NCBI GenBank assembly: GCA_963806035.1
Contig: CAWDWO010000007.1
Span: 1-64,000, forward strand
Direction of reading: 5' to 3'
DNA length: 64,000 bases
From: Candidatus Krumholzibacteriota bacterium
Lineage (GTDB): Bacteria > Krumholzibacteriota > Krumholzibacteriia > JAJRXK01
The translations under genes and the position numbers were made by a program. Under the pieces are notes generated by a model. It was not told where the DNA came from. It saw nothing but the letters and a program-made list of their open reading frames with translations, and did not search any database. Positions 7,150 through 61,498 of this stretch are shown here, piece after piece; position 1 is the first letter of the stretch, and each line of letters opens with the position of its first letter.

Positions 7150-8222
7150 AGCTCATCGACCGCTATGTTCTCAGCGCCTTCTTACGGGTGCTCTTCTGGT
7201 CCATCCTGGCTTTCGTCGCCATCTTCCTCTTGATCGATCTCTTCGATCACCTCGACAACTTCCTGGACGACAACGCGCGTCTCCTGGCCATCCTCCGCTA
7301 CTACCTCTATCAGTTGCCGCTCGTCATCGATCTCTGCCTCCCGGTGGGCATGCTCCTGGCGAGTCTCTTCACGGTGGGGGTGCTCTCAAAGAACAACGAA
7401 TACACTTCGCTGCTCTCGGCGGGAGTGAGTCTCACGCGCCTCTCGCGATCCATTCTCATTCTGGGCATTCTCGTTTCGCTGGGAGCTCTGGTATTCCGAG
7501 AATACGTGGTGCCCGAATCGAATCAACGTCAGCGGGAGATTCTCAAGTACGAGATCGAGGGCAAGATCCGCCAGGACCTCATGTCCAAGCGCAACTTCAC
7601 CTACATCGGCCAGAAGGGAGAGGTGTACGTCATCGCCTCGTTCAGACCCAGTCCTCCCACTCTGACCGGCTTCTCGATGGAAGTGTTCGCGGATAGCGTG
7701 ATGGTGCGCAGAATCGACGCGGAGCGCGCGCGCTGGGACGGCCGGAAGTGGGTGGCGGAGAACGGCGCGATCCGCGAATTCCATGACGGGAAGGAAACGG
7801 TGCAGCCCTTCACCAAGTATCGCGTGGAGGAGTCACTGGAGAAGCCCGAGGATTTCAGCCGCCGCGAGATCGACCCCGCGGACATGAATTACTTCCAACT
7901 GGGGCGCTTTGCGGAATGGGTGGGGCGCAACGGGGGCAACCCCACTCCCTACCGGGCCACCATGGCCAACAAGCTGGCCTTCCCCATGGTGAACTTCCTG
8001 ATGGTGGTGCTGGGACTCTCGCTCGGCGCGTCTCGCCAGAAGACGACACTCTGGGCCGGCTTCGGTCTGACGGTGGCGCTGGGCTTCGTCTACTGGATCC
8101 TCATGGACTTCGGACTGTCTCTGGGCAAGACCGGTGCTCTGCCGGTATGGATCTCCGCCTGGGGTCCCAACATCTTCTATGCGATCCTGGGGGGGATCCT
8201 GTTCTACCGGGCGAATCGCTGA
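7146..8222 (+). CDS. lptG: LPS export permease LptG
   Basis: ATGA overlap with lptF stop; MKLIDRYVL, LSKNNEYTSLLSAGVS, C-terminal AWGPNI. Confidence 0.85.
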   Translation: MKLIDRYVLSAFLRVLFWSILAFVAIFLLIDLFDHLDNFLDDNARLLAILRYYLYQLPLVIDLCLPVGMLLASLFTVGVLSKNNEYTSLLSAGVSLTRLSRSILILGILVSLGALVFREYVVPESNQRQREILKYEIEGKIRQDLMSKRNFTYIGQKGEVYVIASFRPSPPTLTGFSMEVFADSVMVRRIDAERARWDGRKWVAENGAIREFHDGKETVQPFTKYRVEESLEKPEDFSRREIDPADMNYFQLGRFAEWVGRNGGNPTPYRATMANKLAFPMVNFLMVVLGLSLGASRQKTTLWAGFGLTVALGFVYWILMDFGLSLGKTGALPVWISAWGPNIFYAILGGILFYRANR

Positions 8223-8226
8223 GCTC

Positions 8227-9387
8227 TCAGAGCATGTCGCGGATGGCGTCCACGCGATCCAGCTTCTCCCAGCTGAAGCCCTCTTCCTCGCGACCGAAGT
8301 GCCCATACGCCGCGGTCCGGCGATACAGGGAGCCGCGTCGCAGCTTCAACTCGGTGATGATCCCGTTGGGAGTCAGATTCCAGAGCTCACGCACGATGGA
8401 AGTCATGCGTTCGTTGGGAACCTTGGCTGTGCCAAAGCTCTCGACGCGAACCGAGACCGGCTCGGCCACCCCGATCGCGTAAGCGAGTTGAACTTCCAGC
8501 TTCTCGGCCGCACCCGCCGCCACCAGGTTCTTCGCGATGTGACGCGCGACATAGGAAGCGGAACGATCCACCTTGGAGGGGTCCTTCCCGCTGAATGCGC
8601 CGCCTCCGTGGCGTCCCATTCCGCCGTAGGTATCCACGATGATTTTGCGGCCGGTCAGTCCACAGTCGGCCTGCGGACCGCCGAGAACGAAGCGACCGGT
8701 GGGATTTACGAAGAACTTCGTGTTCGAGTAGTCCAATCCAGAAGCCTCGAGCGTGGGTTTGGCGACTTCCGACACCATGTCTTCGCGAATACGATCGAGC
8801 GTGGCGGCCTCGGCGTGCTGGGTGGAGACCACCACGGCGGAGACCCGCACGGGCTTGTGGTCTTCGTACTCCACCGTCACCTGGGTCTTTCCATCGGGAC
8901 GGAGGTAGCCGAAGGTTCCCGCCTTGCGCACCTCGGCCAGACGGCGCGCCATCTTGTGGGCCAGGGAGATCGGCGCCGGCATGTACTCGGGAGTCTCGTT
9001 GCTGGCGTATCCGAACATGAGCCCCTGATCACCCGCGCCCTGCTCCTCCGGCTTGTCGCGATCCACTCCCTGCTTGATGTCGGGAGACTGCGCATCGATG
9101 CTGGTGAGCACCGCGCAGGTTTGCGCGTCGAAACCGTAGGCCGCGTCGGTATAGCCGATGGCACGGATCGTGGCCCGCGTGATTTCGGGGATATCTACGT
9201 AGACCTCGGTGCTGATCTCTCCCGCGACCAAGCACAATCCCGTGGTCACCAGAGTCTCACAGGCGACGCGACCGTTGGGATCCTTGGCGAGAATCGCATC
9301 CACCACGCTATCCGATACTTGGTCCGCGACCTTGTCCGGATGGCCTTCGGTTACCGACTCTGAGGTAAAAAGATGCTTCTCGGCCAT
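8227..9387 (-). CDS. metK: S-adenosylmethionine synthetase
   Basis: [37 protein letters not shown]. Confidence 0.98.
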
Positions 9388-17401: not shown

Positions 17402-18814
17402 CTAATAGGTCTTACGCATCCGCGCGGGAAGAATCCCCAATTGTTCGCGGTATTTCGCGACCGTCCTGCGGGCGATGTTCAAACCCTCGACCTTGAGTAG
17501 ATCCACGATCTTCTGATCGCTGAGAGGCCTGCTTTTTTCCTCCTTGCTGATGATGCTCTGGATGCGGATTTTCGCCGCCTTCGATGACATGTTTTCGCCG
17601 TCGTCGGTATCGAGACTGGAGCTGAAGAAATACTTCAGCTCGAAAACTCCGCGCGGCGTCTGGACGTACTTGTTGGTGGTGACGCGGCTCACGGTCGATT
17701 CGTGCATGCCGATGCGGTTGGCCACCTGTTGCAAGGTGAGCGGCTTCAAGGCCACCGCGCCCTTCTCGAAGAATTCCTTCTGCTCCTCGACGATGCACTG
17801 CATCACCTTGACGATCGTGCGTCGCCGCTGTTCGATGGTCTGAATCAGCCAACGCGCGGAATTGAGCTTCCCCACGATGAATTCTCTGGTTTCCTTGTCC
17901 CCCTGTTGCCGGCTGCGAGCGAGTTCCTCGCGGTAGGCACGGCTGACACGGAGACGGGGAATGTTGCTGTCGTTGAGGTAAACGATGTACTCCCCCTCGA
18001 CCCTCTCCACGATGAGATCGGGCACCACGTACTTGGCATCCTCCCCGAAGGTCGAAAGGCCGGGCCGCGGGTCGAGCTGTCCGATTTCTTGCGCGATGGT
18101 CTGGACGTCCTGTGCGGTGAGATGCATTTCCTTGGCGATTTCGTTGAATTTGCGGTTCTTGAGCGCATCGAAATGTTCGCGAACGATGGTCGCGGCGGGG
18201 CCTTCCCCTTCACCCAGGGCGTTGAGTTGCAAGATGAGCGATTCCTGGAGACCGCGGGCGGCGATTCCCGGAGGATCGAAGGCCTGGATGACGCGCAGAA
18301 CGTGCTCGACCTTGTCCTCGTCCACTTCGAAGTGGCGCGCGACCTCTCCCAGATCGCAGGTCAAAAAACCGTCTTCGTTGAGACTGCCGATGATGTACTC
18401 GCCGATCTCTATCTCGAGCTCGTTGTTCAGATTGAGATGCAGCTGCACGGAGAGTTTCTCGTAGCCGTTCTCCGGCGCGACGGCGACTCGTTCGAAACGA
18501 TCGTCGATCTCCTCCCTCTCACCTTCGAAACCTGCCTGGGAAAAACCGTCGTTGAAATACTCCTCCCAGTCGACCGACTCTCCGTTGTTCTCGTTCTTGT
18601 CCCCGTTGGAAGTTTCATCTTCCGAAGCTTCGACTTCCTCTTCTTCCTCGATCGGTTCAACTTCCTCCAGCAGAGGATTCATCAGGATCTCCTGCTTGAG
18701 GATCTGTTCGAGTTCGAGGGTGGGAACCTGCAAGAGCTTGAGAGCTTGTTGCAGCTTGGGAGTCATGACGAGTCGTTGACCCATCCGTTGACTCAGAACG
18801 TGTTTCATTTCCAT
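17402..18814 (-). CDS. rpoN: RNA polymerase sigma-54 factor
   Basis: LQQALKLLQ region I, HESTVSR HTH, RpoN box ARRTVAKYRE. Confidence 0.98.
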   Translation of the reverse strand: MEMKHVLSQRMGQRLVMTPKLQQALKLLQVPTLELEQILKQEILMNPLLEEVEPIEEEEEVEASEDETSNGDKNENNGESVDWEEYFNDGFSQAGFEGEREEIDDRFERVAVAPENGYEKLSVQLHLNLNNELEIEIGEYIIGSLNEDGFLTCDLGEVARHFEVDEDKVEHVLRVIQAFDPPGIAARGLQESLILQLNALGEGEGPAATIVREHFDALKNRKFNEIAKEMHLTAQDVQTIAQEIGQLDPRPGLSTFGEDAKYVVPDLIVERVEGEYIVYLNDSNIPRLRVSRAYREELARSRQQGDKETREFIVGKLNSARWLIQTIEQRRRTIVKVMQCIVEEQKEFFEKGAVALKPLTLQQVANRIGMHESTVSRVTTNKYVQTPRGVFELKYFFSSSLDTDDGENMSSKAAKIRIQSIISKEEKSRPLSDQKIVDLLKVEGLNIARRTVAKYREQLGILPARMRKTY

Positions 18815-19585: not shown

Positions 19586-20139
19586 TCCTGTTCCCCCTTG
19601 CGCAATCCCGGGGAACTCTCCGGAGCATCCCCTTCCACCTGCTTCTTGATCCTGAGATCGGTCATCTTCGGATCGGTCTCCAAACCGATACCGGTCAGAA
19701 CCTTGTCAGCGTCCGTGGCCCGGAAATAGAGGTCGGTGAAGATGATTCTACGTTCATTGTCCCAGTTCAGAACCTCGCTCTGAAGAGTCCGGTCGTCCTC
19801 GGTCACGATCTTCACGTCCCCCTTGGCGACCATGTTGCGCGTGTTCTCGTTGACCGTGCCGCGCTCGGAGGTGAGAGTCGCGCTCAACTGTCCATCGGTA
19901 TAAAAATACATGCGCACCCCGATGAGGTGGAGATCCTCCTCCCCTGCGTAGCGCTCGGCCCGGTTACCGAATAACTCCCAGCGCATTTGCCCGCGCTCGG
20001 TTTCCACCGTGTGATAGCCGTAAATGGTCTGGATGGGCGACTCATTGGTGGGCGAAGGTGCGTTCTCCTCCCGCTCACCGCAGCCAGAGCTCGCAAGCAC
20101 GCTCAAGAGGAAAAAGAGAGCGACGAACTTGCGCATCAT
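19582..20139 (-). CDS. lptC: LPS export periplasmic bridge LptC (lipoprotein-type signal LASSGC)
   Basis: Position before lptB; beta-jellyroll-like pattern ([27 protein letters not shown]). Confidence 0.8.
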
Positions 20140-21065: not shown

Positions 21066-21117
21066 ACTGGTTTGATACGTCGAGGGAGGCGGGGTGTCAA
21101 GCAAGGATGGTGCCAGA

Positions 21118-28073: not shown

Positions 28074-28619
28074 TCAAGCGTCGTGCAACAGACTCAGCAT
28101 CTCGGCCCGGGTCGCGGGCCGGTTGCGGAAAGCCCCCAGCATTTCGCTGGTAATGGCGATCGAGTTCTGTTTTTCCACTCCCCGCATCATCATGCACAGG
28201 TGTTGCGCGCGGATCACCACCGCGACGCCCTGGGGATGCAAGTAGTCGTTGAGCGCGTTGGCGATTTGAGTCGTGAGGCGCTCCTGCACCTGCAGGCGAC
28301 GCGCAAAGATCTCGACGATCCGCGCCATCTTGCTCAGTCCGATGATCTTCCCGTCGGGAATGTAGGCGACGCCCGCCTTTCCGAAGAATGGCAACATGTG
28401 GTGCTCGCACATGCTGTAAAAGTCGATGTTCTTCACCATTACCATTTCGCGATTCTCGGAATCGAAGATCGCGTCGTTCATCGCTTCTTCCACGTCGCCG
28501 CGGTAGCCGTTGCAGAGGAACTGCCAGGCCTCCGCGACTCGCTGCGGGGTTCTCTGCAGACCTTCGCGATCTGGATCTTCGCCGAGTTCCACCAGCATCT
28601 TCCGGATCAATTCTTCCAT
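28074..28619 (-). CDS. folE: GTP cyclohydrolase I
   Basis: [33 protein letters not shown]. Confidence 0.97.
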
Positions 28620-28698
28620 CTCGACTCCTTTGCGCGCTAGCTCACCGGCGCAAAACTACCGCTCTCGGTGGAGCGGCCCAAAACTCATCAGAGCAAAC

Positions 28699-29088
28699 TC
28701 AGCTCGCCACGAAATGGTTCCTCGGAGTTTCGACCAGCTCCACGGAGACCAGGCGAGGACCTCCTGCGAACTCCTCATCGAGCCAGTTCTTGAACACCCG
28801 CGCGAGATTCTCTCCCGTCGTCACTTCGTCGATGATGTCGTCCAGGTGGCGATGATCCACCTTGGAAATCAGGCACTCTTCTACTCGACGGTCCACTTTC
28901 CGGCGATCGAAGAGCATACCCGTGATCGGATCGGGTTCTCCCTCGAAGAGGAGGACGAGCTCGTAGTTGTGCCCGTGGCCTCCTTCGTTGGCGCACTTTC
29001 CGTAGACCTCCACGTTCTCGTTCTCGGCAAGCGCGGAGGTATGAAGGCGGTGCGAAGCCTCGAAGCGATAGATCCGGCCGACCCTCAT
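28699..29088 (-). CDS. 6-pyruvoyl-tetrahydropterin synthase family protein (CX5HGH motif)
   Basis: FEASHRLH, KCANEGGHGHNY, DHRHL, TTGEN, ETPRN. Confidence 0.88.
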   Translation of the reverse strand: MRVGRIYRFEASHRLHTSALAENENVEVYGKCANEGGHGHNYELVLLFEGEPDPITGMLFDRRKVDRRVEECLISKVDHRHLDDIIDEVTTGENLARVFKNWLDEEFAGGPRLVSVELVETPRNHFVAS

Positions 29089-29525
29089 TGCGACGGCTCC
29101 TTCTCCAGCTCCGCGTAGAGATCTTCGCTCTCCCACAGGCGGATCAACGACAGCCGGCATTCACCCAGCTCGGCAATCGGTTGCTCCAGAACCGACCAGA
29201 GATAACGAACGAGGTTCTCGCAGCTGGGAATGAGATCGGCGAAGTATTCCACGTCGTAATTCAGAAAAGAGTGGTCGAGCTTCTCCACCACGATCTTCCG
29301 CAGCAATTTGTCCAGATCGGCCAGATTGATGACCATGCCGGTGACCGGATCCACCGGGCCTTCCACGCCGACCTCGAGGCGGTAGTTGTGTCCGTGCCCA
29401 TGTGGCCGGTTGCAAGCTCCGAACACTTCGCGATTCTGCTCTTCACTGAGCGCCGCGCTGTGATAGCGGTGTCCGGCGCAGAAGCGCACCGTCCTGAGGA
29501 TTCGAAGGCGGGAAGTCGCGGGCAA
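29085..29525 (-). CDS. 6-pyruvoyl-tetrahydropterin synthase family protein (CX5HGH motif)
   Basis: FCAGHRYH, ACNRPHGHGHNY, DHSFLN, PSCENL; TTG start after GGAGGTG SD. Confidence 0.88.
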   Translation of the reverse strand: MPATSRLRILRTVRFCAGHRYHSAALSEEQNREVFGACNRPHGHGHNYRLEVGVEGPVDPVTGMVINLADLDKLLRKIVVEKLDHSFLNYDVEYFADLIPSCENLVRYLWSVLEQPIAELGECRLSLIRLWESEDLYAELEKEPSQ

Positions 29526-29660
29526 TGGAGCACCTCCTCGCAAAGCCTTCACTTCGATCGGCTGACCGGAGCGAAGCTGCATTCACAAAAGTCCCCATAG
29601 GATATGACGCTCCAAGCCGCCTCGCCACGAGCGCAAGTGGCACGAATCATTGGGCGGAAT

Positions 29661-30398
29661 TCACACGAGGTGGAGTCCTCCATCAACCGAGAAGTCGCTG
29701 CCGGTGGTCCAGGCCGATTCCTCGCTGGCGAGAAAGAGAATCGCGCTTGCCACTTCCTCGGCCGTTCCGATGCGCCCCAAGGGATGCATTTTTGCAGCCC
29801 CACGCAAATCCGCGCCCTGGTGGATGGGAGTCTGGACGACTCCGGGGCTCACGCTGACGACGCGAATCCCATCGGCGGCCCACTCCAATGCCAGGGATTG
29901 TCCAAAGGAAAGGAGCGCGGCTTTGGACGCGCAGTAGGCGGCGGCTCCGGGAACCGGCCGGTGCGCCAGATTGCTGAGCACGTTCACGACCACGGCTTCT
30001 TCGGCGGCCTTGAGCCAGGAATACGCCGCCTTGCACAGCAGATAGGGGGCGCGCACGTTCAAGTCGAAGTGCGCCTGCCACTGGTCCAGTTCGAGTTCGG
30101 TCACTGGCTGAGGGAAATAGAGTCCGGCGTTGTTCACCAGGATGTCGATCCCGTCCATGCTGCGGGCGGCGCTTGCGACGACCCGTTCCGCCGCCTCTGC
30201 CTCATAGAGGTCCGCCGCGAGCAGCCCGGCCTTTCCTCCCGCGCTCGAGATTTCTTCCTGCACCCCGCGGAGATTGTCCTCTCCCCGCCCCACCAGGTAC
30301 ACCGAGGCGCCCGCGCGGCTGAATTGTCTGGCGGTGGCCGCGCCGATCCCGCTCCCCCCACCGGTGATCAGCGCCTTGCGACCGTGCAAAGTGAACAT
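29661..30398 (-). CDS. Short-chain dehydrogenase/reductase (SDR)
   Basis: TGGGSGIG, NNAG, YCASK, SPG. Confidence 0.92.
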   Translation of the reverse strand: MFTLHGRKALITGGGSGIGAATARQFSRAGASVYLVGRGEDNLRGVQEEISSAGGKAGLLAADLYEAEAAERVVASAARSMDGIDILVNNAGLYFPQPVTELELDQWQAHFDLNVRAPYLLCKAAYSWLKAAEEAVVVNVLSNLAHRPVPGAAAYCASKAALLSFGQSLALEWAADGIRVVSVSPGVVQTPIHQGADLRGAAKMHPLGRIGTAEEVASAILFLASEESAWTTGSDFSVDGGLHLV

Positions 30399-30517
30399 CG
30401 CAGCTCCTCTCTCCGCCTTCGGAATTCGTGTCCGAAGCTAGCAGTCAGCTTCCCCATGATTCCTCAGGATATCCGATCCTACCCCACACCACCGGCCAGC
30501 GCGACTTGGGGGCGGGG

Positions 30518-30533
30518 TGGCATCCGGGTTGCT
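30518..30533 (+). promoter_or_regulatory. Sigma54 (-24/-12) promoter TGGCATCCGGGTTGCT
   Basis: Exact TGGC-N7-TTGCW geometry in an intergenic region; rpoN is present in the window. Confidence 0.75.
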
Positions 30534-30543
30534 GTAAGTGTCC

Positions 30544-30680
30544 GCGTACTCGATTTCGCCGGAGGGCGGAACGGAAAACTTCAGAACGAATTCGGGCTCA
30601 TCACAAAGTCGTCCCCCCCAGAGATCGTGTGATGAGCGTAGTTCTGGAGCCCCCGCTTTCGTCCTCCGGCGGATTTTTTT
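30544..30680 (+). ncRNA. Putative sigma54-dependent sRNA: one long hairpin with C-rich apical loop and 3' U-tract
   Basis: Nested pairings CGCCGGAGG/CCTCCGGCG, CAGAAC/GTTCTG, GCTCATCACA/TGTGATGAGC around GTCCCCCCCAG; ends in T7. Confidence 0.65.
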
Positions 30681-30695
30681 GCCCGGTGGCCCCCT

Positions 30696-31376
30696 TCAAA
30701 TTTCTGCTCCACTTTCGTCCAGAGTCACCGGCGCCCAGCTCCCCGACTCGCTGAAAGCTCCCTGGGGAGTGAGCCTGAGCTTCCCCGCTGCGATCCAGGC
30801 CAATACGCGCGGATAGAGTCTACATTCAGCTTGAAAGACGCGAGCTCGCAAACTGGCGAGATCGTCCGAGGCGAGCACCGGGACTTTGATCCGAGCCAAT
30901 ATCTGCCCCGAATCGAAGTGCTCGTCGACCAGATGCACGGTAGCGCCGCTCTCCTTCTCCCCCGCCGCGAGCACTGCGGAGTGTACGCGATCGCCGTAGT
31001 AGCCGGCTCCCCCGAAGCGCGGGAGCAGTGCGGGGTGGATGTTCAGCACCGGTAGCCCGGCCCGGAAGGAGAGATCGAGAAGGGAGAGATAGCCCGCGAG
31101 GCACAGCAGCCGTGCTCCATGCTCGTGTTGCCAGTGAAAGATCTCGCGGTCGCGCTCCTCTTTCCCGGCGAACTGCGACTTCTTGAACACTCGCACGGGA
31201 ATCTGCGCCGCCCTGGCGATCTCGAGTCCACGGGCGCTCTCGCGATCGCTCCCCACCGCCACGATGCGCAGCGGTAGATCCCCACTCTGAATTTCTTCCA
31301 GCAAGTTTGCCAGAGTTCGGCCGGTGCCGCTCAGGAGCACTCCAACCGGAAGGGTTTGTTCATGCTCGAAGGACAT
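30696..31376 (-). CDS. purN: Phosphoribosylglycinamide formyltransferase
   Basis: LLSGTGRTL, LAGY, NIHPALLP, GATVHLVDEHFDSG. Confidence 0.95.
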   Translation of the reverse strand: MSFEHEQTLPVGVLLSGTGRTLANLLEEIQSGDLPLRIVAVGSDRESARGLEIARAAQIPVRVFKKSQFAGKEERDREIFHWQHEHGARLLCLAGYLSLLDLSFRAGLPVLNIHPALLPRFGGAGYYGDRVHSAVLAAGEKESGATVHLVDEHFDSGQILARIKVPVLASDDLASLRARVFQAECRLYPRVLAWIAAGKLRLTPQGAFSESGSWAPVTLDESGAEI

Positions 31377-31399: not shown

Positions 31400-32983
31400 C
31401 TATTGGGGTCTCCGACTCACGAAGGCCAAAGTGATCGCCTGGAACAGAAGGAACAGCGCGAGAGGAAGCTCTCCCCACTTGGTATAGGGGGAGGAAGCGG
31501 AGCTGGGATGGAGCGTTCGCACGATGTAGGTGCGCTCCTGCAGCCGGGTTTGATCCACCACGCGTCCGCTGGCGAGCGCGAAGAAACAGATTCCGTTGTT
31601 GGAACATCGAACCGTGGGAACCCGATTTTCCGCCGATCGCATGACCCCCATGAGACCGTGCTGGTAGGGCCCAAGAGTGTTCCCGAACCATCCGTCATTG
31701 CTCATGTTCACCAGGATCTCGGCACCCTTGCGCACGGCGGCGCGGCTCGGGCCGGAAAAAATCGACTCGAAGCAGATGAGATTGGCGAAGCGATATCCGT
31801 CGACCTCGAAGATCGTGAGTTCCGGGCCCGGATCCCATTCGGCCTGTCCGAAGTCCAACTTCCCCAGGAACGGAAAGATCTTTTGGAAGGGCATGCGTTC
31901 GCCGAATGGCAGAAGGTGCATCTTACGATACCGCGCCCTCACTGCCCCCGCGTCGTCCATCAAGAGAGAGGAATTGTAGCGCAGCAGTGAGCCATCGGAT
32001 TCGACTTCCCGTTCGGGGAAACCGGTGAGCAGGTAGATCTTTTTGCTCTCGACGAGATCCTGCAGCCGCATGAGGTAGCGGGGGGCTCGCAGCACGTCCA
32101 GAGGAACCGCGGTTTCCGGCCACACGACCAGGCGCGCCCCGTCATCTGCCGCCTCTTCGCTGAGTTTGGTGAAGGGAATGAATGTCGAATCACGGCGCGC
32201 CGGATCGAACTTGTCCATGAGCGAGACGTTGCCCTGGATCACGCCGACGCGCAGTCCATCTCCGGGACCCACCGGTGTTTCCAGAGCGTGCATCGTGTGC
32301 GTACCGTAGACCAGGGTGACACCGTACAGCAGAAGCAACGCGACCAGAGCCCACCAGCGATAGAGCACAGCGCGGCCGAGTCGTGGAAACTCTCCCCGCA
32401 GCGAGAGCCAAGTCAAGGCCAGCAGAACGTTGGTCACCGCGACCAGCCAGCTGATGCCCAGCTCGCCGAAGATCCCGGCCAGCTGCAAAATTGGGACGTA
32501 ATGCAGCTGCGTCATGGCCAGGCGCATCCAGGGGAAACCCAACTCGCCCGTGCCCTCGAGCCACTCCACCACGACCCAGATGATGGGAAACCACCAGATG
32601 GCCTGCTCGTGATAGCGCCGGCGCAACTTCGCGCTCACCCAGAATACGATCCCGTCGAAGATGGTCATGTAGAGCGCGAGCAGAACGAGCCCCATCGGCA
32701 GAAACAGCCAACGGTATTTCATCGTTGCCGCGGGATCGAGCTGCAGAAGCCAGTAGAGTTCGCTCAGATGATGGGTCAGGCCAAAGGAGAGAATGAGCAG
32801 CTTGAGACGGAGCGGCCGCGCTTCCCTCAGGTTGCGTGGATGAAAGAGGACGAGCAGAACCGGAACCAGCGCCACGTAGGCCAGAAAGCCCACGGGCGAA
32901 GGCGCGCCAGCGACGCTCAGAAGGAGACCGCTGGTGATGCCGGCGAGAAATTCCGGAGTGGACCAGAACCTAGAACCTTGCAT
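31400..32983 (-). CDS. lnt: Apolipoprotein N-acyltransferase
   Basis: GFPW, WPETA, YRKMHLLPFGE, ICFES, NDGWFG. Confidence 0.95.
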   Translation of the reverse strand: MQGSRFWSTPEFLAGITSGLLLSVAGAPSPVGFLAYVALVPVLLVLFHPRNLREARPLRLKLLILSFGLTHHLSELYWLLQLDPAATMKYRWLFLPMGLVLLALYMTIFDGIVFWVSAKLRRRYHEQAIWWFPIIWVVVEWLEGTGELGFPWMRLAMTQLHYVPILQLAGIFGELGISWLVAVTNVLLALTWLSLRGEFPRLGRAVLYRWWALVALLLLYGVTLVYGTHTMHALETPVGPGDGLRVGVIQGNVSLMDKFDPARRDSTFIPFTKLSEEAADDGARLVVWPETAVPLDVLRAPRYLMRLQDLVESKKIYLLTGFPEREVESDGSLLRYNSSLLMDDAGAVRARYRKMHLLPFGERMPFQKIFPFLGKLDFGQAEWDPGPELTIFEVDGYRFANLICFESIFSGPSRAAVRKGAEILVNMSNDGWFGNTLGPYQHGLMGVMRSAENRVPTVRCSNNGICFFALASGRVVDQTRLQERTYIVRTLHPSSASSPYTKWGELPLALFLLFQAITLAFVSRRPQ

Positions 32984-33093: not shown

Positions 33094-33780
33094 TCATTCC
33101 TCGCTGAGGATCCCGTGAATCTTGAGCTTCTGGTAGAAGACCTGCCGGCTGAGGTGGAGGGAACGCGCGGCGCGGCTCTTGTCTCCTCTGGCCCGCCGCA
33201 GGGCACGACGGAGAAGAGCCGCTTCGCGGCTCACGAGCTCAGCTCGGCTGAGTTCTCCGGCTCGCTTCTCGAGCTTCTGCTCTTCTACGCTCACGGTGGA
33301 GCGCAGGAGCCAGGCCGGTGGACCCAGCGATCGCGCGAGCGCCTCCATTCCTTGGCGCGCCACCCGCAGCCTGAGCTTCCCCGGGCGCCAGTCCGCGTCC
33401 ACTGCCGCCAAAAATGCCACACAGGGAATGCGGTCTCCGGGAAAGGGCCAACCGACGAGCCCGTGCGCAGCCCGCTCGCGTAACCACTCCGCCAATGGAT
33501 CTGCGGACTCGCGCTGGACACTGAGGGGGCGCGCCCGCGCAAAGAGCTGCCGATACCCCGCCAAAGGGAGAGCCGTCTCGGGAAACTCGGCCGGACCCGC
33601 CTGATCCACGACCTGAAGAAGCTCGAAAACCAGCGCCGGATCGTGGGGAGCCTGCGCATGCAGGCAGCGCGCGATCCCCAGGATCTCGGCTCCCAAGGCG
33701 GCTCGCAGCGCGCTGAGTCGATCGCATAGTTCCTCCTCGGGCATGGAGGGAAGGAACCCCTTAAGAGCAGCTGAATTCAT
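33094..33780 (-). CDS. Hypothetical regulator with C-terminal Fis-type HTH, no AAA+ domain (start uncertain)
   Basis: C-terminus EAALLRRALRRARGDKSRAARSLHLSRQVFYQKLKIHGI. Confidence 0.7.
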   Translation of the reverse strand: MNSAALKGFLPSMPEEELCDRLSALRAALGAEILGIARCLHAQAPHDPALVFELLQVVDQAGPAEFPETALPLAGYRQLFARARPLSVQRESADPLAEWLRERAAHGLVGWPFPGDRIPCVAFLAAVDADWRPGKLRLRVARQGMEALARSLGPPAWLLRSTVSVEEQKLEKRAGELSRAELVSREAALLRRALRRARGDKSRAARSLHLSRQVFYQKLKIHGILSEE

Positions 33781-33845
33781 CTTGAATGCACGGAGGGGGG
33801 CGCGTGGAGCTGGTGGCAGCATCGGTGCTGCAAGGCCCGTGCCCT

Positions 33846-34946
33846 TCATCCCGGCCGACACGAGGTGGAAATTTGCTCTTCTTGGAAGCGCAGGCTGTCC
33901 TCTGCTCGGGGCGCCGGACAGCGCGCGCGCGTTCTAGCCGGCGTGAAAGCGCACGGGGCGTCTTCTCCGCGCGCCAGGACGCGTCCGATGGCCAGGGGGG
34001 GCTCGCTCAACTTTGAAGCGCACTGAGGTGAAATCTCTTCACAGATCACGACCATCCCCAAGCCCAGATTGAAGACCCGCCGCATCTCTTCTTGCTCGAT
34101 GCGACCCCGCTCTTGCAGCAGCCGGAAGATCGGGGGCACTTGCCAGGAGCCCTCGTCGATTTCCACGGCAAGTTCCTTCGGGAGAACCCGCGGGATGTTG
34201 TCGACGAGACCGCCTCCGGTGATGTGGGCCAGCGCGGCGATCGGATGACGAGCGCGCAGTTCCCTCACTTGTGAGAGGTAGCTGCGATGCACCGCGAGAA
34301 GCGCATCGGCGAGCGAACTTCCCAGTCCACCCGGATCCTTTTCGAGGGGAAGCTTCGAATCGCCCTCGAGCAGGACTTTGCGCGCCAGACTAAAACCATT
34401 GGTGTGCAGACCACTGGAAGGCCAGGCGTAGACCCTCATTCCCTCTCGCACCATGGCACCGGTGATGAGGTCCTCCTCCTCCACTCTGCCCACGATGCAG
34501 CCGGCCAGGTCGAAGTCCTCTCCGTGATAGAGGCCGGGCATCTCCGCCGTCTCTCCCCCGATCAATGCACAGCCGTTCTCGCGGCAGGCCTTGGCGAGCC
34601 CCTCCACCACCGCGACGAAGGTCCCCTCGCTCAAGCTCCCCGTCCCGTAGTAGTCCAGGAAGAAGAGCGGGGTGGCTCCCTGAACCAGGATGTCGTTGAC
34701 GCAGTGGTTCACGAGGTCCTCCCCGACCCCGCGCAACTGCCTCGCCGCCAAGGCGATTTTCAGCTTGGTTCCCACGCCGTCGATGGAGGAAACGAGCAGG
34801 GATCCATCGGCTTGGCGGTAGAGACCTCCGAAGGAGCCCACCTCCGACGCGACGGCAGGGCCCCAGGTGGAGCGGATTGCAGCACGGGAGGAGGCGAGCG
34901 CTTGGCTGGCGGCGTCGATGTCGACCCCGGATTCGCGGTATTTCAT
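33846..34946 (-). CDS. purM: AIR synthetase (phosphoribosylformylglycinamidine cyclo-ligase)
   Basis: YRESGVDI, DGVGTK, VND, GGETAEMPG, SSGLHTNGFSL, HITGGG; C-terminus possibly extended by an indel. Confidence 0.96.
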   Translation of the reverse strand: MKYRESGVDIDAASQALASSRAAIRSTWGPAVASEVGSFGGLYRQADGSLLVSSIDGVGTKLKIALAARQLRGVGEDLVNHCVNDILVQGATPLFFLDYYGTGSLSEGTFVAVVEGLAKACRENGCALIGGETAEMPGLYHGEDFDLAGCIVGRVEEEDLITGAMVREGMRVYAWPSSGLHTNGFSLARKVLLEGDSKLPLEKDPGGLGSSLADALLAVHRSYLSQVRELRARHPIAALAHITGGGLVDNIPRVLPKELAVEIDEGSWQVPPIFRLLQERGRIEQEEMRRVFNLGLGMVVICEEISPQCASKLSEPPLAIGRVLARGEDAPCAFTPARTRARCPAPRAEDSLRFQEEQISTSCRPG

Positions 34947-38402: not shown

Positions 38403-38430
38403 GAACATTCCCCCATCGAAATTCTTGCGT

Positions 38431-50045: not shown

Positions 50046-51641
50046 TCAGTCCGCCCCTCCCAGGCGCAACGAGAAACCGAGTCCCGCGGACCATTCGAGA
50101 AGCTCGCTGCGGTCCCTCACGAGTCGCAGCCAAGCCCCGGCCCTGCATCTGCCATCCCGACGGGCCAGCGCACAGAGCAGTCCCGAGGCGCCGGGCTGAA
50201 GCCAAGTGCTGGCCAGACCCGCCGTCGCCACCCCGACCGCCCAGGGAGAGGAGCGGTCCCCCCGCGCCAGCGCCAATACCCCGCGCCAGAACCACGCTCT
50301 GCCCTTTTCCAGGCTCAGGGCCAGGAGAGTGGCCACCCCGGCATCGTCCCTTTGCTGGCGAAAGCGCAGTCCGCGTCGCAGTGCGCCGCCGCGTGCCCTC
50401 TCCTGCCAATCCAGTTTGAGGAGGAAGGCTGACGGCCCAGCTTGCTCTTCGTCGACCTGCAGGACGACGGCCAGGCGTGTCGTGGCCAAGGGCCCCGAGG
50501 CCCTCAACTGCCAGCGCTCATCGACGCGCACTGCACCCGGCTTGCCGCGACGGCGCCTCCGCGCCAGAGCCGCAAAAGTCCAGGCTCCTCCACTCAAACG
50601 ACCGCTGGTCTGAATCACGCGATGTTCACGGTCCGTGGACTGGCCGGTGATGGGATCCTGACCGGAGGCATCGCCGGGCCCGGCCTGCGTCAACGCCACC
50701 CCCCAGCGCGCCGGGCCTTCCCGAAACTGCAGGGCCGCGCACACTCGATCCGAAGCCGAGGAACCCGGAGAAAAATCACGCACCCATTCCAGACGGGCTC
50801 GTAAGTCCTCGCGCTGCAAGGCGAAAAACAGTCCCGCTTCATCCTGATCTCGAAGTGCCAGCCCCAGCTCCGTTCCCTTCGAGGGGGCGAAGCGATACCC
50901 CACGAAAGCGAGGAAGGGAGCGGCATGGGTGTCCTCTGCTGCGCCGCGGGCCAGAAGGAGATGCCAGCTCTCGAGTTCGAGTTCGATGCCCCCGCCGCGC
51001 CAACTCTCGCCATAGAAACTGAGCCGGGGACGCAGGCGAGTTGCTCCGTTCAGCGAGGGACCGGCGGTTCGCGAGCGAAGCGAGGGATTTTCCAGCAGGA
51101 GGGGCCAGGGAAGCTTGGGGCGAAAGTCACCCACGATCAGTCTGCCCCAGCTCGCACGGTAGCTGGCCGCCGCGCTGCTCACCGTGCCTGGTCCGGGTTC
51201 AGCTTGTGCGAGGATCCTCAATTCATCCCGCTGCACCAGCAATCGAGGACGATGCCGCGCCGCGGCGTCCGGCTTCCAGGCGCTGCGATCTTCGAACTGG
51301 AGTTGGGCCTGATGAACCCGCGGGTGCAAGGAAACGAAAGGAGTCAGGGCCGCGATCCTGGCTTCGTCCATGCCCGGAATGCTCAGCAGATCCTCTAAAG
51401 TGGAGAGACCACCGTGTTCTCGCAGCCCCACGATCGCGCCGGCCAAACCCGCGTCCAGCCAGGGCAACAGGGCCAACTCTTCTTCGGTGGCCGTATCGAG
51501 ATCCAAGGGTTCGTCGAGCCACTCCTTCAGTTGATCGATCATTTCGTCGCTTTCCGCAGCGTGGGCCGGATTCGCGCCTGGCAACAGAGCGAGTGAGAGA
51601 AACAGCCACAGGTGGATGCCCGCGCGCCTCATCCGCTTCAT
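50046..51641 (-). CDS. Signal peptide + ComEA-type helix-hairpin-helix + probable beta-barrel
   Basis: PLDLDTATEEELALLPWL..AIVGLREHGG..EDLLSIPGM; amphipathic beta-rich remainder. Confidence 0.75.
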   Translation of the reverse strand: MKRMRRAGIHLWLFLSLALLPGANPAHAAESDEMIDQLKEWLDEPLDLDTATEEELALLPWLDAGLAGAIVGLREHGGLSTLEDLLSIPGMDEARIAALTPFVSLHPRVHQAQLQFEDRSAWKPDAAARHRPRLLVQRDELRILAQAEPGPGTVSSAAASYRASWGRLIVGDFRPKLPWPLLLENPSLRSRTAGPSLNGATRLRPRLSFYGESWRGGGIELELESWHLLLARGAAEDTHAAPFLAFVGYRFAPSKGTELGLALRDQDEAGLFFALQREDLRARLEWVRDFSPGSSASDRVCAALQFREGPARWGVALTQAGPGDASGQDPITGQSTDREHRVIQTSGRLSGGAWTFAALARRRRRGKPGAVRVDERWQLRASGPLATTRLAVVLQVDEEQAGPSAFLLKLDWQERARGGALRRGLRFRQQRDDAGVATLLALSLEKGRAWFWRGVLALARGDRSSPWAVGVATAGLASTWLQPGASGLLCALARRDGRCRAGAWLRLVRDRSELLEWSAGLGFSLRLGGAD

Positions 51642-52396
51642 CGCGCTTCCCTCCCCTCTGGCCGGGCAAGTTCCAGCGCGAGATAGGGTCCCGCATCGAT
51701 ACTCGACACCAGAGGGAACGCGAGCGCGAGATTGAGTGAGGAAAATCGCAGTCCCAGATGCAGGCTGCCCCCCCTTGCGTCACCCCGGTACGCGAGCGAA
51801 AGCGGAGCGAGCAGCAGCTCGAGACCCGCGCTCCAAATGCCTCGCTCCTCGAAAGGGGAGTCCTCTCGCATGAGCGCCGCCGCCCAAGCGCTTCCTTCCA
51901 GCTCGAATACGTATGCGGCGCTCGAGGGAAGTCGAACACCTTCATGCTCCAGAGGAAATTCCTGCTCGATACCGAAAGCGAAGCCGCGCGCCGTGAGCAC
52001 TAGAGCCAGTTCACCCCGCGAACTCAGCTCGCTGGCGATCGTCTCCACCTCTCTCTTCTGGCGCTGCACTCGGGCGTGCACGCGGAACCCGGTCCCGGTG
52101 AATCGAAACCCCAGTCCCAGCTCCTGCTCGGAATAGGCTGCCGCGCGCAGCTGGCCGGCAAGAGTCCAGACGAGAACGGAGGAACTCAGGCCGAAGGCTC
52201 CCTCCAACCAGCTCTGACTGGAGGGCGCGAAGCTGACCGGGTTTCCCGCACCCAAGCGCAAACGGGCAGAGGGTGCGCGCATCCAGCAATCGCCGGGCAG
52301 AGCTTCCATGCGCCTCGGACCCGAAAAGGTTTCGGCGTGTGCGCTGAGCTGAAGGATGAAGAGGAGGGCGATGACGAGCAGCCCCGGCCACCTCAT
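51638..52396 (-). CDS. Hypothetical exported protein, probable small beta-barrel
   Basis: Signal peptide MRWPGLLVIALLFILQLSAHA; alternating beta strands; ATGA overlaps on both sides. Confidence 0.6.
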   Translation of the reverse strand: MRWPGLLVIALLFILQLSAHAETFSGPRRMEALPGDCWMRAPSARLRLGAGNPVSFAPSSQSWLEGAFGLSSSVLVWTLAGQLRAAAYSEQELGLGFRFTGTGFRVHARVQRQKREVETIASELSSRGELALVLTARGFAFGIEQEFPLEHEGVRLPSSAAYVFELEGSAWAAALMREDSPFEERGIWSAGLELLLAPLSLAYRGDARGGSLHLGLRFSSLNLALAFPLVSSIDAGPYLALELARPEGREAR

Positions 52397-54030
52397 GGTC
52401 GCCGTCCCAGTGCGACCAGCGCCGTCCAGCGACGCGGCGCCAACTCTCCGCCTTCGCTCTGTACCACCACCACATAGGCCCCCATGGGAACCCGTTGGCC
52501 GCGGCTGGAGCGTCCGTCCCAGATCCACTGCCGCAAATTGCCCCCCGAGGTATCGTTGCCCAGCTCGGCGACGGTCGTCCCCAGGAGATCCCTGATCTCG
52601 GCCTGGACTCTGAGCCCGCTCAGCTCGGCGTGCAGCAGCACGTGGAGGATGTCTCCTTCGCCGTCGCCATCGGGACTGAAGGGATTGGGAGAGAGCGCCA
52701 GGCCACTCTCTGGGCTGCTGAGGGCGGCGGCGGAATTCTCCTCTCCCGGACTGGGAGAGCCCGGAGAGAGAAACCAGGCACTGGGAGCCTCGGGACTGAC
52801 GAAACCACGTTCCATGCTCCTGCCGGCTTCGCCCACCAAATCGTCGCCGTAGCGAAGTTCGTCCACGACGGTTCCGCTGTCGTCACGCAAGAGAATCCGG
52901 TCCGCGAACTCGCTTCCGCCACTGGAGCTGTTGTTGAGCGAGGGCCATCCACCATCGGGGAGAACGACGGGTAGCTGCGATGAGAGCGCAAAGACGGATC
53001 GAAGTGCCTGCGGATCGGAGGAGAGGAGCGCGAAGCCCTCAGCGGAAAAGCCGAGTCCATCGAGTCCTCGCCAGTCCTCGGTGGCATCGGTGATCGCCCA
53101 GCCGTCGAGCACCTGTGGTGCGTCCGGTTCCCCCTTCAACTCGATCCACTCGGGGTGATCCGCGAGCGGCTTGGCCATGACCTCGTTCAAGAGAACCGGC
53201 CCGGGTCCCACTTGATATCCCAAGCTGGCGACCGCGGTGCTGTCGCTTCCCCAAGAGAGCTGGAAACGATGGCGGCCGCGGCTCAGCCACGCTTCCACCC
53301 GGCTTTGCAGTGTGTCACCGGGAGCGGCCTGAAGGACCTGTTGTTCCAGAGGAGTCGCGTCCAGGCTCCAACGCAGCGAGAATTCCTGCTGGGGAGCGAA
53401 ACCATCGACTTGGGCGGAGAACTCGAGTGCGACCTCTCCGGGCATTGCCAGGAAGGACGGCGAGGCACTCAGCCGCAGAAGATGCAGACTCTCGGCCCGC
53501 GCATTGGGACGGCCCGGAGTGGGAGGACTCAGGGCGGAGAAGTCCGCTCGATTGTCGTCGCTGTCGGCGCCGTCGGGGATGCGACCCAAACTCTCACCTG
53601 AGACATCCGGCGCCGCTTCGCCCTCTCCCAGCCCTTCGATTTCGCCCCAAGCCACTCGGTCGAGGATCGTCTCGTCGCGAGCCAACCACAGAGCATCCGG
53701 ACCGTTCTGCAGATTCAGTGCTGCCTCGTCGTCCCTTCCTGCGACCTCGGCCCCACCCACGAGATAGAACTCACCCGGTGCCAGACTGAGTCCCGCCTTC
53801 GCCGTCCACACCACACTTGGCTGTTCGGGCGCCGCACCATTGACGAAGAGCAAACGGACGCCATCCAGAGAAATCGCGGTGTCGCCGTCGGCGTAGAGTT
53901 CCACGAACTCCCGGCCCCCGTCACTCCCCTTTGGATCGTAGAGAATCTCGTTGAGAACGAGTTGAGCGTGCGCGCGGGCGGGAAGCGTGAGACAGAGCAG
54001 AAGACCGAGGATGCGAAGCATGTGACGCAC
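52393..54030 (-). CDS. Secreted protein with two lamin-tail domains and FlgD-Ig/T9SS-like C-terminal domain
   Basis: LNEILYDP..EFVELY, LNEVMAKP..EWIEL, PTPG/PSPG, SPNPFSPDGDG..WDG..G.Y. Confidence 0.85.
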   Translation of the reverse strand: MRHMLRILGLLLCLTLPARAHAQLVLNEILYDPKGSDGGREFVELYADGDTAISLDGVRLLFVNGAAPEQPSVVWTAKAGLSLAPGEFYLVGGAEVAGRDDEAALNLQNGPDALWLARDETILDRVAWGEIEGLGEGEAAPDVSGESLGRIPDGADSDDNRADFSALSPPTPGRPNARAESLHLLRLSASPSFLAMPGEVALEFSAQVDGFAPQQEFSLRWSLDATPLEQQVLQAAPGDTLQSRVEAWLSRGRHRFQLSWGSDSTAVASLGYQVGPGPVLLNEVMAKPLADHPEWIELKGEPDAPQVLDGWAITDATEDWRGLDGLGFSAEGFALLSSDPQALRSVFALSSQLPVVLPDGGWPSLNNSSSGGSEFADRILLRDDSGTVVDELRYGDDLVGEAGRSMERGFVSPEAPSAWFLSPGSPSPGEENSAAALSSPESGLALSPNPFSPDGDGEGDILHVLLHAELSGLRVQAEIRDLLGTTVAELGNDTSGGNLRQWIWDGRSSRGQRVPMGAYVVVVQSEGGELAPRRWTALVALGRRP

Positions 54031-59486: not shown

Positions 59487-61498
59487 TTGGGTCCGTCCTT
59501 CTCGCCGGCGCCCTGCTCGAGGCGGTCGATCCGTGCCTTGGCCTCTGCAATGTTGTTCTGAGCGCCCTGGTTTCCGGGATCGATCTTCAAAATCTGCTCC
59601 CACTGTCGAATCGCTTCTTCGTAGTTGCCATCGGTGAAGGAACGGAGGCCCGCCAGGTAGTACTGGCGCACCTGCTTCTCCTCGCTCGGGCTGAGGCTGG
59701 CCGGTCCCGACCTGCGGTGGGCGATCTGGTCGAGAAGCGCCAAGGCTTGCGCATGCTTGGGCTCCCGCTTCAAAACCTCGCGGCAAAGCGCTTCAGCCTG
59801 GTCCAGCTCGCCTTTCGAGAACGCCTCGAGCGCTTCGGTGAAGCGGCGCTCCTGTGCCAGCTCCCCGCGGGCGCGTTCGGCGTCGGCCTGCGCTTGCTCG
59901 CTCTCATGGCGAGCGGCATCCAACTCCGCCTTCCAGCGCTTCAGGGCCGCGGCGGGAGCAGGATTATCCGGGTCGAGAGAGGCTACGACGCTCCAGGCAT
60001 TCAATGCGGATTCCCAGTCGCCTGCCTCCTCCGCCGCGGTGGCTCGTGAGGATGCGCTTGCCATCGCGCTGGCCTCGAGGTCCTCCACCTGCTGACGGAG
60101 ACGCGGCAGCATGGGATAGTCCGCAGCGAGATCGCCCAGAGCGTTCAATTCCGCTCGCGCTTTCAGCGCATCGTGTTGGTCCAGCGCGGCCCGGAGTTGA
60201 TTTTCGGTGTCTTCGATCCGGAGCGTGCGCCGCTGCTCGTCGGCCTTTTGCTGCGTGACGCGCTTTTCCAGCTGCTGCAGGCTTGCCAGCTGGGTCCTCA
60301 GAGAATCATCGGCCACACCAAGACTGCGGGCCCGCGCCAGGCTCTTCTGCGCGTCCTGGAGCGAATCCCGGCTGAGCGCATCCTGGAAATCCTGCACCGC
60401 ACTCGTGATTTGGGCCTTGCGCCAGTTCTCCACGGCTTCCATGCGCGCCTGCATCAACTCTTTGGCCCGCAGTTCGTCGCGGTGACGGCGCCGATCCTTC
60501 ATGTCCTGGCCGAAGTACCAGGAGAGGCTCAAGAACTGGGATGATCCCAATTCTCCGCCCGAACGAAACGCATAGTCCACGGAGTAGTCCCGCCAGCGTC
60601 CACCCAGACCGGCGTTGAAATGGCCATCGTCGTAGCTGAGACGCAGGGTGTAGAGTCCTTGGTACTCGGCTTCCGCGCCCAGTCCGAGACGCTTGGCGGC
60701 GTACTGTGGTTTGTCGTAGACCGCGGCCAACTGGAGAGCCGTGTTCTCGCTGAATTCATGCCGTTTGCTCAGGGCAAAGCGCTGCGCATAGGGCAGCGTG
60801 TCTTCGCGCTCGATGAGCCTGAAGCTCGGTGCGATCAGATTCTGGTATACAAAGGAGAGCCGGACTCCCCCGAGACGCGGAGGGACCCAGGCCAGGCCCA
60901 AGTCCATGCCACCGCTGGTGCTCTTCTCTTCCAGATCCAGGCTGTGGATCTTGGCGCTCGTGCCCAAATCGAGCCTGCCGCCGAGGTACGGCAGCCTTCC
61001 CCCATATCCGTAACTCAAGAAAAGCTGTGTCTCTCCGTAGCTGATGCTTCCGGTGGGTCGGCTGGTACTGTCGTAGGTTTCGATGTCCCCCAGTTTGAGC
61101 CGCAGGAAGCCGATGCCGAAGCCTCCGGCGTTCAGAGTAGGATAGGCGAGTCCCAAGTAGCCGTAGGAGGCTCCGCCATCGAGACCGTAAAGACGGTTGT
61201 AGCTGAAGGTGAGCTGTGATCCTCGAGCATGGGGCAAGAGTGCCGGGTTCCAGAAGCAGGCGCTGGCATCATCGGCCAGGCCCACCATCGTCGATCCCAA
61301 ACCCACTCCGCGCGCGGTAGGACCGAGCTTGAAAATAGACTCGGTGCCTCCACCGTCGTCCGCGGCTCGGGCCAATCCCGCAGGGAAGAAGCACATGAGC
61401 AGAAGCAGCAGAAGGGCAGAAGCCGCGGCTCCGCGCGCGTTCTCACAGCGCGAAGTGTGCCTCGAGGTGGGCACGAAGTTCGGATAGCCGCGCCTCAT
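59483..61498 (-). CDS. PorV/PorQ-family outer-membrane protein with C-terminal coiled-coil/TPR extension
   Basis: Signal peptide; GPTARGVGLG..LADDASACFWNPA; barrel ending DYAF..G..QFLSLSWYFG; TPR tail EAIRQWEQILKIDPGN. Confidence 0.85.
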   Translation of the reverse strand: MRRGYPNFVPTSRHTSRCENARGAAASALLLLLLMCFFPAGLARAADDGGGTESIFKLGPTARGVGLGSTMVGLADDASACFWNPALLPHARGSQLTFSYNRLYGLDGGASYGYLGLAYPTLNAGGFGIGFLRLKLGDIETYDSTSRPTGSISYGETQLFLSYGYGGRLPYLGGRLDLGTSAKIHSLDLEEKSTSGGMDLGLAWVPPRLGGVRLSFVYQNLIAPSFRLIEREDTLPYAQRFALSKRHEFSENTALQLAAVYDKPQYAAKRLGLGAEAEYQGLYTLRLSYDDGHFNAGLGGRWRDYSVDYAFRSGGELGSSQFLSLSWYFGQDMKDRRRHRDELRAKELMQARMEAVENWRKAQITSAVQDFQDALSRDSLQDAQKSLARARSLGVADDSLRTQLASLQQLEKRVTQQKADEQRRTLRIEDTENQLRAALDQHDALKARAELNALGDLAADYPMLPRLRQQVEDLEASAMASASSRATAAEEAGDWESALNAWSVVASLDPDNPAPAAALKRWKAELDAARHESEQAQADAERARGELAQERRFTEALEAFSKGELDQAEALCREVLKREPKHAQALALLDQIAHRRSGPASLSPSEEKQVRQYYLAGLRSFTDGNYEEAIRQWEQILKIDPGNQGAQNNIAEAKARIDRLEQGAGEKDGPK

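Follow-up and report, generated by a model that had tools for sequence, protein, structure and literature searches.

Comparative analysis of the window, i.e. the whole 64,000-nucleotide stretch considered here, suggests with good confidence that positions 30518-30680 constitute a genuine sigma-54-type small RNA (sRNA) gene. The locus displays a promoter motif, a long hairpin fold with a C-rich apical loop and a terminator signature, accompanied by conserved synteny, a box and a loop that are conserved together, and covariation in the hairpin of the relatives. Judging from the contigs compared, the family appears to be always located between a divergent folE (pterin/folate) operon and purN, in Krumholzibacteriota-like uncultivated bacteria. 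The original prediction of an unannotated sigma-54-dependent hairpin sRNA that acts in trans stands as regards the gene, by virtue of comparative conservation, whereas translational repression is an analogy. The complete statement, comprising a stand-alone sigma-54 sRNA gene whose product pairs in trans through a poly-C loop, is held at slightly better than even confidence.

Promoter, hairpin and terminator in the window

The canonical -24/-12 element that had been proposed is present upstream of the hairpin (Table 1), its GG and GC elements showing the exact spacing of TGGCAC-N5-TTGCW. A scan of both strands of the 64-kb window with TGGCAY-N5-TTGCW returned two matches against 0.09 expected, a number reached by one of 100 shuffled windows. 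The box starts 95 nt before the C-run, and simple arithmetic from the motif scan places the chance of finding a sigma-54 box on the right strand within 70 nt upstream of a given C7 at ~5e-5. The predicted transcription start of the candidate RNA falls at about 30543-30546. The host encodes sigma-54 itself, with rpoN present in the lptC-lptB-rpoN-hpf-hprK cluster of the window. No gene for an enhancer-binding protein (EBP; Sigma54_activat domain) was found among the window proteins scanned, and no conserved inverted repeat was recognised upstream of the box as an upstream activator site; the cognate EBP may sit elsewhere in the genome.

The second canonical box of the window, TGGCACCATCCTTGCT at 21100-21115 (-), overlaps the annotated start (21104) of an lpxL-like ORF that heads the gene string lpxL-like - lptC - lptB - rpoN - hpf - hprK, an arrangement by which sigma-54 could control its own operon.

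Table 1. Positions in the window of the features of the candidate RNA gene and of its neighbouring and related genes
Feature	Position	Strand	Basis
sigma-54-type -24/-12 promoter box TGGCATCCGGGTTGCT	30518-30533	+	motif scan
Predicted primary transcript, ~137 nt, a single long imperfect hairpin with a U-tract behind it	30544-30680	+	MFE fold
Outer helix, 5' arm, pairs with 30653-30673	30555-30574	+	MFE dot-bracket, inverted-repeat search
Middle 9-bp helix, 5' arm, pairs with 30641-30649	30579-30587	+	MFE dot-bracket
Inner perfect 10-bp helix, 5' arm GCTCATCACA, pairs with 30628-30637	30596-30605	+	MFE fold and inverted repeat, 100% complementary
Apical block AGTCGTCCCCCCCAGAGA holding the exposed C7, proposed seed	30607-30624	+	P(unpaired), match to L001
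Inner helix, 3' arm TGTGATGAGC	30628-30637	+	inverted-repeat search
Middle helix, 3' arm	30641-30649	+	MFE fold
Outer helix, 3' arm, terminator stem	30653-30673	+	MFE fold, terminator scan
T7 tract, U-tail of the predicted intrinsic terminator	30674-30680	+	sequence, terminator scan
purN, convergent with the RNA, synteny anchor	30696-31376	-	Pfam Formyl_trans_N; TIGR00639 PurN 150.8 bits
SDR - PTPS - folE operon, divergent from the RNA promoter, synteny anchor	28074-30398	-	Pfam/TIGR matches
SDR	29661-30398	-	
PTPS	29085-29582	-	
folE	28074-28619	-	
lnt	31400-32983	-	
rpoN	17402-18814	-	TIGR02395, 450.8 bits

The long imperfect hairpin of ~135 nt with three nested helices was likewise recovered as described. 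The segment 30544-30682 (+) folds with an MFE of -65.7 kcal/mol, corresponding to a z of -6.14 against 200 dinucleotide shuffles (mean -43.2, sd 3.7), none of which folds as well, whereas the reverse strand of the same segment reaches -56.8 kcal/mol with a z of -3.2. The 137-nt RNA includes five G-U pairs and its reverse complement is 8.6 kcal/mol weaker. Only about 11 unpaired nucleotides precede the hairpin. The apical loop exposes the C7 tract (30613-30619), as anticipated, with P(unpaired) of at least 0.98 for six of the seven C, and C7/G7 runs are rare in the window (5 vs 18.4 expected).

The hairpin ends in the predicted T7, and the terminator scan identified a G+C-rich stem at 30658-30673 (+) followed by TTTTTTT, a pattern that is itself not above chance in the region (3 found vs 2.1 expected in 2.5 kb). 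The T7 occurs on the + strand only; on the - strand the hairpin is preceded by A7 and lacks a following T-run. A primary transcript that depends on sigma-54 and ends at its own hairpin is indicated by the conserved box, by rpoN and by a T-run on the same strand; we infer both transcription and its dependence on sigma-54 and an EBP in vivo. According to the proposed mechanism, sigma-54 RNA polymerase, activated by an EBP, would start near 30544 and generate a ~137-nt RNA that would fold into one long hairpin doubling as the intrinsic terminator.

The claim that no credible CDS lies on the + strand agrees with the lack of a Pfam match in the ORFs 30428-30754 and 30538-30816. No ORF of at least 15 codons is common to the family, and L002 and L016, two of the related loci introduced below, lack any; a coding reading was rejected on these two observations.

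The RNA gene lies in a 297-nt gap between purN and SDR, in a neighbourhood where lnt, purN, SDR, PTPS and folE are all encoded on the - strand and are followed by trxB on the + strand; the hairpin begins 22 nt beyond the purN stop. The window also encodes a PorV-family type IX secretion protein, which fits the FCB group. As a side observation, a 940-aa ORF at 56964-59786 (-) combines matches to an RsbW-like anti-sigma kinase and a PP2C-like phosphatase with an IS481-transposase-like stretch (residues 773-883), and could represent a fusion, what is left of an insertion, or an artefact of ORF picking.

Syntenic copies in related genomes

The relatives comprise 65 loci obtained by a purN-anchored search of genome contigs, with a best purN identity of 57%; the top relatives are MAGs labelled Krumholzibacteriia/Krumholzibacteriota, 'uncultured Fibrobacteraceae', Gemmatimonadales or 'bacterium'. 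Searches of these loci with the 201-nt region of the window by blastn-short and nhmmer returned nothing significant; a 12-nt exact match to the loop in L001, seen with the same programs, led to a syntenic copy. Altogether, 12 of the 16 closest loci hold a copy (L001, L002, L004-L011, L014 and L016). In two others of the 16, L003 and L012, a GltD-like gene is present and the contigs end before the expected RNA site, and no copy was detected in L013, L015 and the 49 more distant loci by a box-C-run scan and the covariance model described below.

The 12 copies share a common architecture, in the same place and orientation, consisting of (i) a GG-N10-TGC box, (ii) a long terminator hairpin, and (iii) a C5-C8 apical loop. 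The box is found in 11 of 11 assessable relatives, or 12 of 12 counting the window; the exception to assessment is L009, in which ~9270-9370, upstream of the RNA copy, is masked as N. Promoter and loop are thus jointly conserved, as box, terminator hairpin and C-rich loop occur together in 12 related loci. The placement of the RNA between folE and purN is kept across a lineage in which purN is only 50-57% identical.

When the loci were scanned for C-runs preceded by a GG-N10-GC box, eight were picked out (L004-L008, L010, L014 and L016), in which the box, e.g. CGGCACAATCCCTGCA, precedes a C6-C8 run by 89-119 nt, antisense to purN; with L001 included, the distance from box to C-run spans 83-119 nt. 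Their predicted folds comprise a short 5' hairpin (SL1) followed by a hairpin of ~80 nt (109 nt in L008), which has the outer stem AAGGGCC.../...GGCCCTT and is capped by an apical loop of 7-8 nt, for instance CUCCCCC or UCCCCCC, and in the lower-GC genomes among them a T6-T8 run follows the hairpin. L002 and L011 carry the box GGGTAYACTTCCTGC, a 5' hairpin and T-runs, with the RNA directly after purN as in the window. T-runs of at least five residues follow the hairpin on the RNA strand in the window, L002, L010, L014 and L016. The RNA strand is not favoured by fold energy throughout, seven of 12 members folding equally well or better as the reverse complement, and in those seven the strand assignment relies on the box and the T-run.

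A covariance model, R1, was built from the hairpins of the eight scan-derived loci and searched against the window plus all 65 loci (722,762 bases). R1 retrieved three untrained members, L011 (35.5 bits), L009 (35.0 bits) and L002 (32.3 bits), with E <=5e-6, the next match on the strand of the family having an E of 0.049. The resulting R1 group comprises 11 members (L002, L004-L011, L014 and L016), which have in common the loop motif (C/U)UCCCCCC. In the model-fitted alignment of the 11 sequences (A3), which is biased toward structure by being fitted to R1, 85.2% of the cells form standard pairs compared with 71.3% in shuffled alignments (0/500 reaching the observed value), double-sided changes occur in 13 of 22 pairs (1/500 shuffles), and slid controls gave 27.6-54.3% paired. 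In the apical helix, five of the six pairs show compensatory changes, and the loop stays C-rich. Single-sequence MFE folds, independent of A3, display the same architecture. Two earlier alignments made with MAFFT only (A1 and A2) were out of register and were replaced by the model-based A3.

The window hairpin scored 2.7 bits with R1, in the loop only and with filters off, which is not significant, and L001 scored 7.3 bits. The search for homologs and covariation suggested with the original prediction thus yielded 12 related loci, compensatory changes in the alignment of 11 of them, and a model that does not score the window hairpin.

In L001, GGCACGCCCGTTGCA lies directly after purN and antisense to it, and ~70 nt further on a hairpin carries the loop block AGTCGTCCCCCCAGAGA, which matches AGTCGTCCCCCCCAGAGA of the window with C6 in place of C7; the order of PTPS, folE and trxB is as in the window. 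The stem below the loop differs, GCTTGTG/CGCAAGC in L001 vs GCTCATCACA/TGTGATGAGC in the window. The window and L001 form a subtype without the 5' hairpin and with a longer rod, in which the block AGUCGUCCCCCC..AGAGA is kept in the loop above a stem that has changed. The segment 6737-6620 (-) of L001 has an MFE structure in which half of the C-run is base-paired to a G-run further upstream, GGGGCGAC, the loop-exposed fold being 3.1 kcal/mol worse; a seed-occluding alternative fold is possible in this copy, as modelled.

The subtype and the R1 group share (i) the location, divergent from folE, on the purN side and antisense to purN, (ii) the GG-N10-TGC box, the long terminator hairpin and the C-rich 7-8-nt apical loop, with the box-to-loop distance of the window within 80-120 nt, and (iii) CGUCCCCCCC, present in L004 and L008 as in the window, CGTCCCCCCC also forming the loops of these two loci. 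They differ in SL1 and the AAGGGCC/GGCCCUU outer stem, both absent from the window and L001, and in the length of the hairpin, ~80 nt vs ~119 nt in the window. Homology of the subtype to the 11-member group is very likely, an assessment that draws on position, orientation, promoter class, box-to-loop distance, terminator hairpin and loop motif instead of a model score.

Inspection of the flanking genes reveals that folE or PTPS-folE diverges from the RNA in L001, L002, L008, L010, L011 and L016 according to Pfam, and that in L004-L007 and L014 the first codons resemble those of these folE genes (by inspection only). On the other side, the RNA is separated from purN by 2.6-3.7 kb in eight loci (L004-L007, L009, L010, L014 and L016). 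In L010 and L016, two co-oriented genes, encoding a 288-aa PyrK-like protein and a 494-aa GltD/NfnB-like flavoprotein, occupy the interval and begin ~135 nt downstream of the RNA. The suggestion that the hairpin might act only as the convergent purN terminator is not in line with these distances, nor with its position upstream of co-oriented genes where checked. No co-oriented gene follows the RNA in the window, L001, L002 and L011, in which box, hairpin and loop are kept, and from this we argue that the RNA is an independent unit.

Two further sequence elements border the RNA in the relatives. A conserved Fur-box-like block, TTGAnAA-N4-AATCATTATCA, then TTGC and TAnnTTT(G/C), is located just after the RNA terminator on the - strand in L004 (~3700-3745), L005/L006 (~9110-9160), L007, L010, L014 and L016, and is probably the promoter/operator of the PyrK-like/GltD-like operon itself. 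On the opposite side, a TTGAC(G/T/C)-N14-18-TAtnnT-like element, directed toward folE on the opposite strand, lies 17-45 nt upstream of the -24 box of the RNA and is conserved in L002, L004-L006, L008, L010, L011, L014 and L016, which suggests a back-to-back arrangement of the promoters for folE and the RNA. A further recurrent motif, CTGCAA, is found some 35 nt before the ATG of folE.

Candidate targets and known RNAs

The apical loop would present the unpaired poly-C tract GUCCCCCCCAG as a seed that would pair in trans with G-rich Shine-Dalgarno sequences or leader G-tracts, leading to altered translation or stability. Pairing with G-rich mRNA sites would be the most likely mode of action in trans in view of the parallels with RepG, 6C and sX13, and action by loop pairing in trans is, by this analogy, about an even proposition.

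The genes lptB and pfkB had been put forward as possible targets. The GGGGGA motifs do exist, the one at 19592-19597 lying 12 nt before the start of lptB and the one at 38409-38414 lying 6 nt before that of the pfkB-like gene, but do not exceed background: GGGGG[GA] has 85 overlapping occurrences on both strands, of which only four, at lptB, the pfkB-like gene, purN and 51638-52528, fall in the 40 nt that precede a predicted start. Loop duplex energies calculated with RNAduplex against 51 start regions are alike in the mean to those of random windows (-12.3 vs -11.9 kcal/mol). The best duplex, -21.7 kcal/mol at 51638-52528, lies in the ~1% tail of 3000 random windows, with 0.5 such duplexes expected among 51; purN comes ninth (-17.3 kcal/mol), and neither lptB nor the pfkB-like gene reaches the top ten. 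None of the 51 start regions in the window stands out as a loop target.

The leaders of neighbouring genes give a similar picture. No G-run of at least seven residues occurs in a 5' leader within the window; a G5 Shine-Dalgarno precedes purN in four of 13 genomes (window, L004, L005 and L010), and no consistent G-tract was found in the folE leaders of 11 loci, the SDR/PTPS leaders of the window and L001, or the 13 purN leaders. A perfect 10-nt complement of the loop segment 30612-30621, CTGGGGGGGA, occupies 8187-8196 (+) within the 3' end of lptG, 26 nt before its stop and facing the convergent metK; with 0.21 such matches expected, self-match included, it is not significant alone.

No family of Rfam release 15, tRNA included, reached its gathering score in the 64-kb window, and the three matches at E up to 10 (E 0.063-6.3) do not fall on the hairpin. 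The RNAs of the relatives returned no Rfam match either, which upholds novelty by this measure for both the window RNA and its relatives. The 6S RNA, SRP RNA, THF-II/folE riboswitch and other known RNAs were rejected, with no Rfam match on either strand, and a folE leader element was rejected on our own reading that in relatives the hairpin is upstream of the apparent folE promoter. Searches of openly available full texts turned up no account of an RNA of this type, nor any regulatory RNA described from Krumholzibacteriota-like bacteria.

Paralogous copies, also envisaged in the original prediction, were not found within the window: the 43-nt apical hairpin, allowing up to three mismatches, occurs once, and the best R1 match in the window has 13.1 bits (E 2.3). 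A box and C6 pair at 33843/33800 (-) was considered as a paralogue and discarded, the leader behind the box showing no stable fold (z -0.12). This sigma-54-like box, GGGCACGGGCCTTGCA at 33828-33843 (-), is followed 44 nt on by the C6 run. It precedes the likely start, the ATG at 33726 after GAGGAGG, of the gene 33094-33861 (-), which encodes a small protein with a C-terminal Fis-type HTH_8 as sole Pfam match.

C-rich-loop sRNAs include RsaE/RoxS from Firmicutes, and a parallel is offered by RepG from Helicobacter pylori, whose promoter is not known to be sigma-54-dependent. The C/U-rich terminator-hairpin loop of RepG is described as pairing with a G-tract in an mRNA leader (PMC8295292), and the poly-C tract of the window RNA is likewise the apical loop of a terminator hairpin. 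The two RNAs differ in that they belong to different phyla and show no sequence or Rfam relation, and no G-repeat leader target was found for the window RNA within the 64-kb window. Exposed C-rich loops that bind G-rich mRNA sites are also reported for 6C from Actinobacteria and sX13 from Xanthomonas (PMC6486639, PMC3771888). 6C, sX13 and RsaE/RoxS carry at least two C-rich loops on separate short hairpins, in contrast to the single poly-C loop on one long hairpin seen here; they also differ in promoter class and taxa, and none has an Rfam match to the window RNA.

Regarding the promoter, sigma-54 dependence is reported for Pxr from Myxococcus (PMC5568312), Qrr1 from Vibrio (PMC10162802) and GlmY/GlmZ from Enterobacteria (PMC3045617). 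Qrr, Pxr and GlmY/GlmZ resemble the present RNA as stand-alone sRNA genes behind a -24/-12 promoter with conserved synteny, and differ from it by adjoining or being served by a known EBP (LuxO, nla19 and GlrR), for which no counterpart was found here. Their folds and seeds are also different, and the window RNA has no Rfam match to them. Both sigma-54-driven sRNAs and C-rich-loop sRNAs are therefore already known, and the present family is apparently undescribed.

Alternative readings and biological meaning

The RNA may be real and sigma-54-driven and nevertheless bind or titrate a protein through its poly-C loop or long helix, instead of pairing with mRNA. The loop is kept beyond what a short seed needs (AGUCGUCCCCCC..AGAGA in the window and L001, (C/U)UCCCCCC in the 11 others), no mRNA target stands out, and the rod-like long helix is conserved in architecture, all of which favour a protein ligand; yet none of the loci shows a linked protein that could be its partner, the length of the C-run varies from C5 to C8 in the family, and the solved C-rich-loop sRNAs pair with RNA in the accounts cited (PMC8295292, PMC6486639, PMC3771888), so that we regard protein binding as unlikely. 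An alternative in cis considers the element as a sigma-54-driven leader or attenuator of an nfnAB/gltD-like operon, the window copy, where that operon is missing, being a remnant whose hairpin would mainly terminate convergent purN transcription or give antisense read-through into purN. The position upstream of the co-oriented PyrK-like and GltD/NfnB-like genes in L010 and L016, the RNA of L004-L007, L009 and L014 lying at the same distance from purN as in those two loci, a terminator signature of the kind found in attenuators, and an RNA 3' end that abuts the purN stop in the window, L002 and L011 speak for this reading. Against this, box, hairpin, loop and T-run are intact in the four loci without a co-oriented downstream gene, unlike a decaying remnant; the TTGAnAA..AATCATTATCA block and following TTGC between terminator and operon look like the promoter/operator of the operon itself; no alternative anti-terminator pairing is evident; and no T-run follows the hairpin on the purN strand. 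A cis-acting element is accordingly judged improbable.

That there is no RNA gene at all, the hairpin being a purN or bidirectional terminator next to a chance sigma-54 match, is suggested by the 22 nt between hairpin and purN stop and by a terminator-like pattern no commoner in the region than chance would have it. This reading is highly improbable in the face of a box that is expected 0.09 times in the window and yet recurs at a similar distance in 12 of 12 assessable members, a loop conserved over changed stems, a hairpin that is away from purN in eight loci, and a T-run on the wrong strand for purN. The preferred reading, a stand-alone sigma-54 sRNA gene, is compatible with a more specific role as a riboregulator of the one-carbon node, set between folE and purN, the purine step that uses formyl-folate, that would tune the translation of G-rich-leader folate, purine or redox mRNAs on an EBP signal, with the C5-C8 length setting pairing strength in the manner of the G-repeat length of RepG; we consider this role a long shot. 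For the sRNA in general, we infer its action in trans, the pairing of the C-loop and the existence of targets.

If true, this would be, as far as the searched literature shows, a first conserved sRNA family in Krumholzibacteriota-like bacteria, which are known from metagenomes only. It would add an independent case of a poly-C loop facing a G-rich site, as in RepG, 6C, sX13 and RsaE, and no new principle, and R1 provides a covariance model that is missing from annotation pipelines. The family would have a promoter class that can be read, a structure that is defined and an evident seed, and would offer a handle on post-transcriptional control and on the sigma-54 regulon in an uncultivated lineage.
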